Source of the DNA: Candidatus Woesearchaeota archaeon
GTDB taxonomy: Archaea; Nanobdellota; Nanobdellia; SCGC-AAA011-G17; GW2011-AR17
Reading direction: 5' to 3'
Length of the DNA: 28,296 nucleotides
Assembly (NCBI GenBank): GCA_964359695.1
Contig: CAYHUV010000002.1
Location: 1-28,296 of the forward strand
Below, in pieces: positions 7,147 to 21,975 of this stretch (positions are counted from its first letter, which is position 1; each line of letters begins with the position of its first letter). The notes under the pieces are model-generated. The model did not search any database and was not told where the DNA came from. It was given only the letters and a program-made list of their open reading frames with translations. The position numbers were made by a program, and so were the translations under genes.

Positions 7147-7242
7147 GAGTCTGTAGCTCAGCTTGGATAGAGCGATAGGATTGCAATATCCCGCTAAAGC
7201 CTTCTAAGCTATAGGTCGAGGGTTCAAATCCCTCCAGACTCG
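7147..7242 (+). tRNA. tRNA-Arg(UCU) with a 21-nt intron at non-canonical position 28/29; no encoded CCA
   Basis: Acceptor GAGTCTG/CAGACTC, D stem GCTC/GAGC, T arm GAGGG-TTCAAAT-CCCTC. After removing 7177-7197 the anticodon arm is ATAGC-CTTCTAA-GCTAT (anticodon TCT at 7203-7205). Confidence 0.93.
7177..7197 (+). other. tRNA intron with a relaxed bulge-helix-bulge motif
   Basis: Central helix AGCG(7171-74)/CGCT(7192-95); 3-nt bulges ATA(7175-77) and AAA(7196-98); inner helix GGAT/ATCC. Cutting after the 2nd nt of each bulge regenerates a perfect anticodon stem. Confidence 0.88.
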
Positions 7243-7380
7243 CTTTATTTTATTCTCTTTTCATTAATTTTCATACACATAATAATTGCAGGAATATAAA
7301 AAATAGCTATTTTTGTTCAGACAATATCAACAGTATATCTAATGAATTAGAATAAAAATAATTAAAAATAAAAAATAAAT

Positions 7381-8311: not shown

Positions 8312-8878
8312 CTAAGGTCTTGTCCAACGAATCTCGTAGAACGTACATGAACTTTCTTCATCAACAATAGCAATAAGCAGTCTTTTTCTTGTAGAATGTG
8401 CAACTCTATTCTTTGCAGAAAATTCAAACCATGTCAACATACTGGTTTCTGCAACTGGATACATAATCCACTTCGCATGGTCATCCCCAGGCTTAACACC
8501 ACGATCATACACACGAAAATCAGCCCCAAATTTTAATGCAGTCTTCACAATATATCCTCTATTACGCATATCTTTGAATGCAGCATAACGAATAAAAAAA
8601 TTTGCTTCCAATTTTATAGCTATTTTTCGTAACTGATCAAAAATTAGTTCTTTTTTCCCTAACATAACTTGCATTTTCCCTCGTTCTACAAGGTATAATG
8701 CTTCAACAAAGGAATATTGATAATTTTTTTGTAAAGGATCACCATAACGGCTTTTTTCATAGAAATCTCTACTAACATCAGAAGATTCTGCAATTACTTT
8801 TCCATCAAGATATTCTGCAATAATCTTTTCTTTAGATTCTGGTTCAGTGATGGTGCTTTCTTTCGCCTTTTTTTCCAT
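8312..8878 (-). CDS. endA: tRNA splicing (intron) endonuclease, single catalytic alpha-type unit
   Basis: VEALYL, RGYIVKTALKFGADFRVY (catalytic Tyr), DDHA (His) and RVAHSTRKRLLIA (Lys). The start may be 8878 or 8896. Confidence 0.95.
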   Translation of the reverse strand: MEKKAKESTITEPESKEKIIAEYLDGKVIAESSDVSRDFYEKSRYGDPLQKNYQYSFVEALYLVERGKMQVMLGKKELIFDQLRKIAIKLEANFFIRYAAFKDMRNRGYIVKTALKFGADFRVYDRGVKPGDDHAKWIMYPVAETSMLTWFEFSAKNRVAHSTRKRLLIAIVDEESSCTFYEIRWTRP

Positions 8879-8929
8879 GTTTGAATTGAAAGGCAAAGTA
8901 TTTAAAAAGCTTTTCTTTTAAAATATAGT

Positions 8930-19398: not shown

Positions 19399-20481
19399 AT
19401 GCAAAAATACATTTTTATCCTAGGAAGGGATCCGGAACTCTCTAGAAGAGAAGTTTTTTCTTATTTTGAAGCTAGAAGTATCAATTATGAGATTGTTGAT
19501 TCTTCAGATATTGCTTTAGTTCTCAACATAAATGATATCTCTCCGGAAAAAGTGATAAAAGATCTTGGAGGAACACAAAAAATTGCACAAGTTATAGAAT
19601 CCATAGATAGTTTGTATATGGGAACAAAAAATAAAGTTCGTTATGCGATCTCACAATATGGAGAAGAGACTAAAGAAGAAGATTATCTCTGGTTAGAATT
19701 AAAAGCTTATTTCAAAAAAGAGAAAATCAAAGCTACTATTAAAAAATCACACAGAGAACAACAAGACTATCTTGATCCATCTGAAGCACAAAATGTTATA
19801 GAGATAATTCAATATAAAAATTATAGGGCTAAAACTGTAGCAGTTTTCAATCCTAAAGACTACAAATTTAGAGATACAAAAAGGCCTGCACAAAGGCCAT
19901 TACATACTGTTTCTATACGCCTTGCAAAGATTTTGATTAATTTATCTGGAGCAAAACCAAGAGATACTTTACTTGATCCTTTTTGTGGTATAGGGACAGT
20001 GTTACAAGAAGCATTACTTATGCATATGGAAGTTATTGGTGTTGATAAAGATAAATTTTGTATTGAAGCAAGTAAACAAAATATTGATTGGGTAAGAAAA
20101 CAGTATAATTGCTCTGAGAGTTATAGACTCATTCATTCTGATTCACGACAATTGTGCCAGTATCTTACATCTGTTGATTGTGTGGCTACTGAACCTTACT
20201 TGGGCCCTTTTTTAAAGAAATATCCGACAGAAACAGAAGCACGAAGGATTATTCAGGAGTTACTCCCTCTTTATCAAGAAGTACTCTTTCATCTCTTGAA
20301 AATAACAAAGAAAAAGATTGTCTTTATTACTCCAAGATTTAGAACGACTGCAAAGAAAGATGCGCCTATCAATCTTGCCCCTTTCTTAGAAAAAAAAGGA
20401 ATTAGCTTTGAAGGCCCTTTTCTCTATGCTTCTCCTACTTCTAGAATACTTAGGGAGATTTGGATTATTAAGCAAAAATGA
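19399..20481 (+). CDS. Trm11/TrmG10-like tRNA methyltransferase (THUMP-like plus Rossmann)
   Basis: RLAKILINLS...LLDPFCGIGTVLQEA...GVD; motif IV appears as ATEPYLG. Confidence 0.8.
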   Translation: MQKYIFILGRDPELSRREVFSYFEARSINYEIVDSSDIALVLNINDISPEKVIKDLGGTQKIAQVIESIDSLYMGTKNKVRYAISQYGEETKEEDYLWLELKAYFKKEKIKATIKKSHREQQDYLDPSEAQNVIEIIQYKNYRAKTVAVFNPKDYKFRDTKRPAQRPLHTVSIRLAKILINLSGAKPRDTLLDPFCGIGTVLQEALLMHMEVIGVDKDKFCIEASKQNIDWVRKQYNCSESYRLIHSDSRQLCQYLTSVDCVATEPYLGPFLKKYPTETEARRIIQELLPLYQEVLFHLLKITKKKIVFITPRFRTTAKKDAPINLAPFLEKKGISFEGPFLYASPTSRILREIWIIKQK

Positions 20482-21344
20482 GCCTAGAAAATGAAAAATA
20501 TCTAAACTGTACTATGCAAATTGCAAAGCAAGCAGGGAAAAAGATTCTAGAGATTTATAATTCAGAGCAAGATAGGGACATTTTTATCAAGGGAGAAGAT
20601 GGGCCAGTAACTAAAGCCGATCATGCATCAAATGTACATATTTGCAAAGAGTTGCACAAACATTTCCCTAGTTTTGGTATTTTAACTGAAGAACAACTTA
20701 AAGAACAAGAATTTTCTGCTGAAGAATTCAATGCACTGCAAGAAAAAACAAAAAATTGGAGGGATTATGAAGATCTTTGGATGATTGATCCTTTGGATGG
20801 AACAAAAGATTTTATTGATGGTTCTGGAACATTTGGTATTCATATTGCACATCTCCATAAAGATACTCCTGTTCTAGGAGTCAATTATTATCCTGTAGAT
20901 GATGTTTTTTATGTTGGAATGAAAGGAAAAGGTGCATGGAAAGTCAAAGATGGAAAATGGGAGCAATTGCATGTTTCCAAAAAAGCAAAGATGCAGGATC
21001 TTGGCCTTGTAGGAAGCAAATATCGCCCAAATGAGAAGGAAGATGCAATACTCAAAGCCTGTGGTTTAGGAGAACCATTGCGTCTAGGCCCAACTGGTCT
21101 AAAAATCTGCCTTGTTGCAAGTTCTGTAAAAGATGTATATATTGTTTTTAGCCCAAAACAAAGTCTTTGGGATACCTGTTCTTCTGAGATTATTCTTCAG
21201 GAAGCTGGTGGAGAAATAACTTATTTTGATGGAACAAAAATTGACTACAGACAAAGTTCTGGGACGAAAATCCTTAATGGTTTTTTAGTTTCAAATGGAA
21301 GAGTACATACACAGATTTTAGACAAACTAAAGCAGGTTTTGTAG
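20478..21344 (+). CDS. cysQ: 3'(2'),5'-bisphosphate nucleotidase / inositol monophosphatase family
   Basis: PVTKAD, LTEE, WMIDPLDGTKDF and WDTCSSEIILQEAGG. Confidence 0.88.
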   Translation: MSLENEKYLNCTMQIAKQAGKKILEIYNSEQDRDIFIKGEDGPVTKADHASNVHICKELHKHFPSFGILTEEQLKEQEFSAEEFNALQEKTKNWRDYEDLWMIDPLDGTKDFIDGSGTFGIHIAHLHKDTPVLGVNYYPVDDVFYVGMKGKGAWKVKDGKWEQLHVSKKAKMQDLGLVGSKYRPNEKEDAILKACGLGEPLRLGPTGLKICLVASSVKDVYIVFSPKQSLWDTCSSEIILQEAGGEITYFDGTKIDYRQSSGTKILNGFLVSNGRVHTQILDKLKQVL

Positions 21345-21575: not shown

Positions 21576-21644
21576 ATATAGAAGAAGGCCCTATAAGGGT
21601 TTTAACCTAGAGAAATATATTAGTGATTTATGGAGGGCAAAGCA

Positions 21645-21975
21645 ATGGATGAAGAAAAAAAAGAAAAAACTAAAGACAATGTTGTGTTCATAGGGGAAAA
21701 ACCTTTTATGAAATCCTAGAAGTTTCGGCTTTTAGAACATCAGTTATGTAACCGCCGTTGTCATGCAGTTTACAACTTTAGGAGCTCCAGAGGTAGTGAT
21801 TAAAGCGCGAGGAAAGTTTATTGCGAAAGCTGTTGATATTGCAGAAGTTGCTATGAAACGATTCTTAGAAAATCAAGTTAAATCAGATAATATTCTTATT
21901 GATAGTGAGGAATTCACTAATAAAGATGGTAGGCAAGTAAGAGTTTCAAGTATTGAGATTTATTTAAAGAGATAA
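21645..21975 (+). CDS. albA: DNA/RNA-binding protein Alba, split as join(21645..21712,21744..21975), 99 aa after removal of a 31-nt insertion
   Basis: GGAGG RBS at 21632-36. Exon 1 reads MDEEKKEKTKDNVVFIGEKPFM, exon 2 reads (N)YVTAVVMQF...VIKARGKFIAKAVDIAE...VSSIEIYL. Joined, they give the complete Alba signature. Confidence 0.9.
21713..21743 (+). other. Candidate archaeal mRNA intron (BHB-like, UUCG hairpin) in alba
   Basis: 8-bp stem 21716-23/21728-35 with a TTCG loop; bulges AAA (21711-13) and AGT (21742-44); central TATG/CATC. The insertion has stops in both exon frames. Confidence 0.8.

Follow-up and report, generated by a model that had tools for sequence, protein, structure and literature searches.

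Protein-coding genes of archaea are usually regarded as uninterrupted. In the literature that we found, the only intron of the bulge-helix-bulge (BHB) type inside a coding region is that of crenarchaeal cbf5 (PMC2738675, PMC7714728), and a further BHB intron has been described in the 5' untranslated region (UTR) of HVO_1309 of Haloferax volcanii, where processing by the splicing endonuclease EndA was confirmed in vivo and in vitro (PMC7714728). Here we analysed a 28,296-nt stretch of DNA from a Candidatus Woesearchaeota archaeon (contig CAYHUV010000002.1 of assembly GCA_964359695.1, hereafter the window), in which the gene for the chromatin- and RNA-binding protein Alba is interrupted by 31 nt at positions 21713-21743. 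We are highly, though not fully, confident that this insert is a BHB intron of the alba pre-mRNA, which would be cut out by EndA and whose exons would be joined by the RNA ligase RtcB. No mention of an intron in alba was found in open-access full-text literature. The initial annotation of this stretch, made from the letters alone, had named cbf5 as the only documented case of archaeal mRNA splicing by EndA, which holds for coding regions and is slightly incomplete in view of the leader intron of HVO_1309 (PMC7714728).

The split alba gene and its predicted intron

The source is a low-coverage metagenome-assembled genome from groundwater (G000; 965 kb in 128 contigs, 88% complete). We take ATG 21645 and not ATG 21630 as the start of alba because of the spacing of the GGAGG that precedes it, which is as in the congeners. 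From this ATG the frame reads MDEEKKEKTKDNVVFIGEKPFMKS, ending in ...IGEKPFMKS before a TAG at 21717-21719, and the frame of exon 2 is closed upstream by a TAG at 21733-21735, after which it reads NISYVTAVVMQF (YVTAVVMQF...) as far as the TAA at 21973-21975. Direct reading confirmed both stops and the frame that had initially been assigned to Alba. When 21712 is joined to 21744, a protein of 99 aa results; the predicted spliced junction is ...CCTTTTATGAA joined to TTATGTAACC, the junction peptide reads PFMNYVTAVV..., and the tryptic peptide that spans the junction would begin with PFMNYVTAVVMQF. A read-through form with X at the break matches the Pfam family Alba (PF01918) across the break (E 5.7e-15, profile positions 1-62). 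The parts of the gene and of the predicted intron are as follows:

21632-21636, + strand: Shine-Dalgarno-like (SD) GGAGG, 8 nt 5' of the alba ATG, read directly, at the same distance from the ATG in congeners
21645-21712, + strand: alba exon 1, 22 codons and the first two nucleotides of the Asn codon, with ...VFIGEKPFM conserved in all relatives
21707-21710, + strand: UAUG of exon 1, the 5' half of the central helix, pairing with CAUC at 21738-21741
21711-21713, + strand: 5' bulge AAA, with the predicted cut at 21712/21713, which is the indel boundary relative to intronless congeners
21713-21743, + strand: predicted BHB intron of 31 nt, type A (ATGAA, intron, T-TAY), a clean insertion relative to L002-L006
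21714-21737, + strand: inner helix and loop, with a U14-A37 pair, a C-A mismatch, an 8-bp stem (21716-23/21728-35) and a UUCG loop (21724-27)
21717-21719, + strand: in-frame TAG, at which translation of the unspliced mRNA would halt after 24 residues
21738-21741, + strand: CAUC, the 3' half of the central helix, towards the end of the intron, read directly
21742-21744, + strand: 3' 'bulge' AGU, with the predicted cut at 21743/21744 and without an outer helix after AGU
21744-21975, + strand: alba exon 2, the last nucleotide of the Asn codon, 76 codons and the stop TAA at 21973-21975

In the proposed mechanism, the alba transcript would fold so that the exonic UAUG (21707-21710) pairs with the CAUC at the 3' end of the intron (21738-21741), and this 4-bp helix would lie between the AAA bulge, which the inner hairpin closes, and AGU on the 3' side. 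EndA would cut behind the second nucleotide of each bulge, and RtcB, encoded elsewhere in the genome, would join ...AUGAA to U-UAU-GUA, which would rebuild the Asn codon and the 99-aa Alba, while the intron would probably be circularised. Ribosomes on the unspliced mRNA would end at TAG 21717 with the 24-residue peptide.

The alignment of the DNA with five intronless congeners (72-91% protein identity) contains a single gap of 31 nt at exactly 21713-21743, and moving the gap by one base to either side loses the match, so that the boundaries of the insert are fixed independently of structure. They fall where canonical BHB cleavage would take place, two nucleotides into each bulge, and the predicted spliced sequence equals the congener sequence letter for letter (TTTATGAATTATGTAAC in L003), which bears out the restored M-N-Y-V and the 99-aa product that had been proposed. 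The insert has the two 3-nt bulges and the 4-bp helix of a BHB motif; the elements AAA, UAUG/CAUC and AGU, named already in the initial annotation, were recovered by direct reading, and the hairpin claimed there, an 8-bp stem with a UUCG loop, is also what RNAfold returns, the inner helix of this intron being 8-9 bp long. The central helix UAUG/CAUC consists of three Watson-Crick pairs and one U-C mismatch and is identical in loci L047 and L088. By itself, the single sequence is no more than suggestive of an intron. An intact paralog, which had been raised as a possible objection, was not found: a single copy of alba was detected in the 88%-complete G000 genome. Between the stop codon of rpS17e and the start of alba lies a conserved GGCCCTATAAGGGTTTTAACCTAGAG element (21588-21612 of the window), common to the congeners, which might serve as a TATA-like promoter or form a terminator hairpin.

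Distribution of alba introns in the order Woesearchaeales

The survey covered 240 genomes of the order, 207 of them with alba, and the DNA of 91 loci was examined. The gene is interrupted in 61 of the 207 (G000 included), in 19 of the 29 families sampled, and all 61 interruptions fall in one stretch of 6 nt in the KPFMNYV codons, between KPF and NYV; the remaining alba matches are full-length and stop-free. Because about 60 related genomes hold such inserts at the same codon, a real alba intron is very probable, and the alignment of related loci suggested at the outset has thus produced both the insertions and, as described below, covarying stems. In the genus of G000, the insert was seen in G000 only, and the presence and absence of introns varies inside single genera.

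The 65 introns found in total are 21-39 nt long, mostly 31-33 nt, and are assigned by position to these types:

Type A, 38 introns: ATGAA, intron, T-TAY (as in G000)
Type B, 21 introns: TTTA, intron, TGAAY (4 nt upstream of A)
Type A', 2 clear cases: ATGAAT, intron, TAY
Type B', 1 intron: TTT, intron, ATGAA

The other three introns belong to genes that are off by one nucleotide under the canonical cut rule (L055, L065 and L072) and have a position that is not fixable, and a fourth such gene, L076, is counted as type A. Of the 38 type A introns, 33 have AAA as their 5' bulge. Double introns are present in four genomes, just 5' of the YV codons, and enclose a micro-exon, which is TGAA (4 nt) in L045/G120, L089/G049 and L091/G048 and ATGAA (5 nt) in L087/G132. 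In L091, the central helix ACUG/CAGU of the downstream intron is perfect only while the upstream intron remains in place, which suggests an enforced order of splicing. A pattern search for type A at the class level (401 genomes, about 313 of them outside the order) gave true hits solely inside the order, the two hits outside it being intronless genes; the pattern was stringent and covered type A, not type B, and the result is to be read as 'not found in those searched'.

BHB geometry, covariation and selection

Choosing the best BHB near the junction by structure alone was abandoned, as the crude score often favoured spurious pairings in the AT-rich sequence. For this reason, the boundaries were set by the protein alone (product MN before Y, open upstream frame) and the geometry was scored afterwards, with 10,920 registers, displaced by at most 6 nt, as controls. 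The central helix has at least three of its four pairs in 56 of the 65 introns (4/4 in 31, 3/4 in 25) and the inner helix is at least 4 bp long in 59; both tests are passed by 54 introns, against 2.3% of the shifted registers. The canonical cut after the second bulge nucleotide restores an in-frame Met-Asn in 57 of the 61 genes, with intron lengths in all three phases.

Compensatory changes were found in the helices of both major types. Among the 21 aligned type B introns, 93.5% of the cells pair on the named structure compared with 36-46% when the partners are slid, 10 of the 15 pairs have changed on both sides, and the covariation score was reached by none of 500 shuffles. The wobble base of the exonic Pro codon covaries with the intron in this type (UA 14, GC 4, CG 1). 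In the 38 type A introns, positions 1-5 of the inner helix take all four Watson-Crick pairs with few mismatches.

The spliced open reading frames (ORFs) of all 61 genes are complete (at least 95 aa). The ratio of nonsynonymous to synonymous substitution rates (dN/dS) of exon 2 lies at 0.02-0.05, also for pairs of two interrupted genes (L041/L042, L064/L074, L089/L091) and for the off-by-one pair L055/L065, and exon 2 of G000 gives 0.02-0.04 against its congeners, at dS > 1. The 57 genes solved with a single intron all retain ..GxKPFM in exon 1 as far as the splice site. An in-frame stop lies inside the first intron in 61 of 61 genes, mostly 7-8 nt past the 5' splice site, and the unspliced mRNA therefore gives a short peptide only, even where the intron length is a multiple of three. 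The share of split genes, the cut rule, the covariation and the purifying selection lend strong comparative support to the BHB-type intron first proposed from the letters of this one locus.

Splicing machinery and a tRNA comparator

The window holds the gene for the endonuclease and a second intron, in a tRNA gene:

8312-8896, - strand: EndA, alpha4-like, 194 aa, with the Pfam N- and C-terminal domains, the sole PF01974 match in the genome
7177-7197, + strand: tRNA-Arg(UCU) intron of 21 nt (gene 7147-7243), located on the 5' side of the anticodon stem

The nearest solved chains of EndA are N. equitans alpha (3IEY_A) and M. jannaschii alpha4 (1A79). The genome also encodes one RtcB (contig C56:1633-2925, E 1e-167), so that both a splicing endonuclease and an RNA ligase are available. 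With these two enzymes present and with the sole alba copy found being the split one, the proposed reliance of Alba on the tRNA-splicing machinery is supported on comparative grounds.

ARAGORN calls tRNA-Arg(UCU) abnormal, with a length of 97 nt. Its intron has a central helix AGCG/CGCU, bulges AUA and AAA, an inner helix GGAU/AUCC and no outer helix, and it is an internal control with the same relaxed architecture as the alba intron. Both introns visible in the window are relaxed, although the only EndA found is plain alpha4-like. The cbf5/TruB gene of the G000 genome is uninterrupted and contains no intron. A scan of G000 for BHB motifs whose removal joins ORFs gave 1260 hits compared with 1270-1378 in frame-shifted controls, with adjacent genes and off-frame ORFs dominating, so that the scan speaks neither for nor against further mRNA introns.

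Evaluation of the intron reading and its alternatives

Several points weigh against the reading of the insert as a spliced BHB intron. The central helix of G000 includes the U-C mismatch, the fold energy of a 76-nt stretch is no better than that of shuffles (z = -0.10), and the minimum-energy fold of RNAfold closes the hairpin by a 3-bp UGA/UCA helix and not by UAUG/CAUC; the case above chance is therefore comparative, not energetic. The outer exon-exon helix has 0-1 bp in 64 of the 65 introns and 3 bp in one, so that the canonical hBHBh' arrangement, in which both bulges are closed by helices, is reduced to the inner helix, and the motif is a relaxed HBh'/bulge-helix-loop (BHL)-like form, not a strict one. 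In the literature, cleavage of relaxed motifs is ascribed only to (alpha-beta)2 and epsilon2 enzymes and to DPANN alpha4 enzymes with an extra loop (PMC5829648), and EndA of G000 is without a specificity-loop insertion relative to 1A79; a second EndA subunit could hide in the absent 12% of the genome. Cleavage and ligation are predicted steps, and the run searches for the locus listed DNA runs only. Finally, four genes (L055, L065, L072 and L076, of genomes G108, G109, G161 and G170) are off by one under the canonical rule: their introns are 33 nt long with perfect central and inner helices, and canonical cuts leave one surplus nucleotide. Strong purifying selection acts on L055 and L065 (dN/dS 0.03), so that their real cut must be another one. 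A 5' cut one nucleotide earlier would yield an AGU (Ser) codon in the off-by-one genes. The intronless alba L112 (JBDRIN010000016.1) encodes F-M-S-Y, all others F-M-N-Y, and Ser is thus tolerated at the split codon.

If the insert were never removed, alba of G000 would be a dead or dying pseudogene, and the stops that block both frames as well as the eight congeners with an intact, uninterrupted alba would agree with such decay. We nevertheless regard it as highly unlikely, given that both exons are intact behind an SD and a start codon, that exon 2 is still constrained relative to the congeners (dN/dS 0.02-0.04 at dS above 1), and that another alba was not found in the 88%-complete genome; moreover, independent decay would not yield 60 other genomes with a like insert and complete spliced ORFs. 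It is also very unlikely that the gene is expressed without splicing, as a truncated Alba from Met 30 (ATG 21763) or as two polypeptides. The ORF 21763-21975 does open with a conserved ATG, and gene callers would annotate it in this way, but this ATG has no SD, the conservation of ..VF[IV]GxKPFM in exon 1 up to the splice site in the 57 single-intron-solution genes would be unexplained for a discarded leader, and the BHB geometry and covariation would have no role.

A stop and a hairpin directly past the last codons of exon 1 resemble the take-off site of phage T4 gene 60, and ribosomes might hop over the 31 nt by translational bypassing. Matched take-off and landing codons of the T4 gene 60 type are absent, however, and the Asn codon AAU must be built from AA and U, which a hop cannot do. 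The insert sequences diverge widely, yet the BHB geometry and the cut rule are kept throughout, and we know of no bypassing in archaea, so that recoding of this kind appears extremely improbable. An assembly or sequencing artefact might be suspected in a low-coverage metagenome-assembled genome of 128 contigs, and a lack of support in raw reads had been named from the start as a possible objection; contigs independently assembled from two other groundwater runs nevertheless cross the insert with zero differences, no intronless form of the DNA was seen, and inserts occupy this site in a further 60 genomes of many different studies, which leaves an artefact with a practically negligible probability.

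Origin and spread of the alba introns

The neighbourhood of alba was compared among loci with at least 1.8 kb of sequence, of which 31 are interrupted and 29 intronless. A LAGLIDADG_3 ORF (PF14528, E 2e-17) is the direct upstream neighbour of alba, in the same orientation, in 9 of the 31 interrupted loci and in 0 of the 29 intronless ones (Fisher p = 0.002, a significance overstated by the relatedness of the genomes). Found in five families, these ORFs share 44-58% identity among themselves; introns of type A as well as type B accompany them, and several copies are truncated. The alba-adjacent LAGLIDADG_3 ORFs, to which four shorter ones are to be added, are:

L028: 605-1492
L042: 119-1072
L045: 1933-2808, - strand
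L050: 467-1372
L060: 1753-2718, - strand

This association suggests a way in which the intron may spread. We infer that a single site of alba in Woesearchaeales is subject to the spread and turnover of a family of introns, probably aided by the free-standing LAGLIDADG endonuclease gene upstream of alba in some relatives. In the window of G000 there is no LAGLIDADG gene next to alba, and in its genome no close homologue of the alba-adjacent ones was found, the best match being 24-26% identical and an intein-like domain. The genome of about 1 Mb contains 18 LAGLIDADG_3 matches (contigs C89, C74, C23, C26, C37, C6 and C24), many of them inside open frames of 700-1400 aa, as inteins would be.

We hypothesize, tentatively and with somewhat less than even confidence, that in a two-part mobile element the mini-introns provide the 'immunity', the other half being the free-standing LAGLIDADG endonuclease. 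The endonuclease encoded upstream of alba would cut the conserved intronless DNA that codes for KPFMNYV, and repair would copy the endonuclease gene together with a BHB intron of 21-39 nt that destroys the target. G000 would then have kept the intron after such an invasion and have lost the endonuclease gene. If true, such an element would explain the four insertion positions in 6 nt, the double introns and the presence or absence of introns within genera, and it would have left the only Alba of G000 reliant on tRNA-splicing enzymes. A selfish, homing-endonuclease-linked origin accounts for the distribution better than regulatory ideas such as a sensor or a feedback of Alba on its intron, for which no conserved element was found except the in-frame stop; the intron need not serve any regulatory function.

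A mobile repeat was considered as a source and rejected, the insert having no further copy in the G000 genome. A 16-nt match between the intron of another genome and contig C1 of G000 was dismissed as a chance match to a coding 72-nt tandem repeat. This repeat (C1 at about 20083-20515, outside the window) is perfect, has at least five copies and is broken by an N run, and it probably encodes a repeat of 24 residues.

Comparison with known systems

Archaeal rRNA genes have BHB introns with LAGLIDADG homing endonucleases, and phages have 'collaborative homing' with free-standing endonuclease genes. The alba introns differ from these homing systems in that the endonuclease gene lies outside the 31-nt intron, directly upstream of alba, and is absent from the G000 window; they are alike in that a LAGLIDADG gene is tied to intron-bearing alba alleles in relatives and in that the intron splits highly conserved DNA, a possible target of the enzyme. 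The LAGLIDADG neighbours in relatives together with the alba introns offer a testable system for the spread of BHB introns into protein genes.

The intron of HVO_1309 is likewise carried by an mRNA that is a substrate of archaeal EndA, as predicted for alba, but it lies in the untranslated leader and interrupts no reading frame. In structure, the alba introns resemble the relaxed introns of pre-tRNA (HBh'/BHL; Marck and Grosjean 2003; PMC5829648), with which they share the 4-bp central helix, a length of 20-35 nt, an inner hairpin that closes a well-formed 5' bulge, and cleavage (predicted for alba) behind the second nucleotide of the bulge. Their host, in contrast, is an mRNA, whose exons must stay in frame and on which ribosomes compete with folding, and the intron holds a conserved in-frame stop. 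This raises the question of how an alpha4-like EndA would act on relaxed mRNA motifs while ribosomes are already reading. For annotation, it would follow that gene callers truncate or miss such genes and that exons of 4-5 nt may exist.

The closest counterpart is the intron of the cbf5 pre-mRNA in Crenarchaeota (Watanabe 2002; Yoshinari 2006; Yokobori 2009, PMC2738675). Both are short BHB-type introns inside a coding region, whose removal depends (as predicted for alba) on a ligase and the tRNA splicing endonuclease; their distribution within an order is patchy, which points to gain and loss, and the product of the host gene is associated with RNA. They differ in the lineage, as cbf5 is interrupted in Desulfurococcales and Sulfolobales and alba in the DPANN order Woesearchaeales, and in the site, since alba has several positions in 6 nt and, in some relatives, double introns with a micro-exon of 4-5 nt. 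G000 has a single alpha4-like EndA, whereas the cbf5 literature ties pre-mRNA splicing to a hetero-oligomeric endonuclease (Yoshinari 2006, by its title as cited in PMC12397907). Splicing has been shown experimentally for cbf5, while that of alba is predicted from DNA. If true, alba would be a second, independent and far more widespread case of a BHB intron in a coding region, located in another superphylum and in the gene for a core chromatin- and RNA-binding protein.
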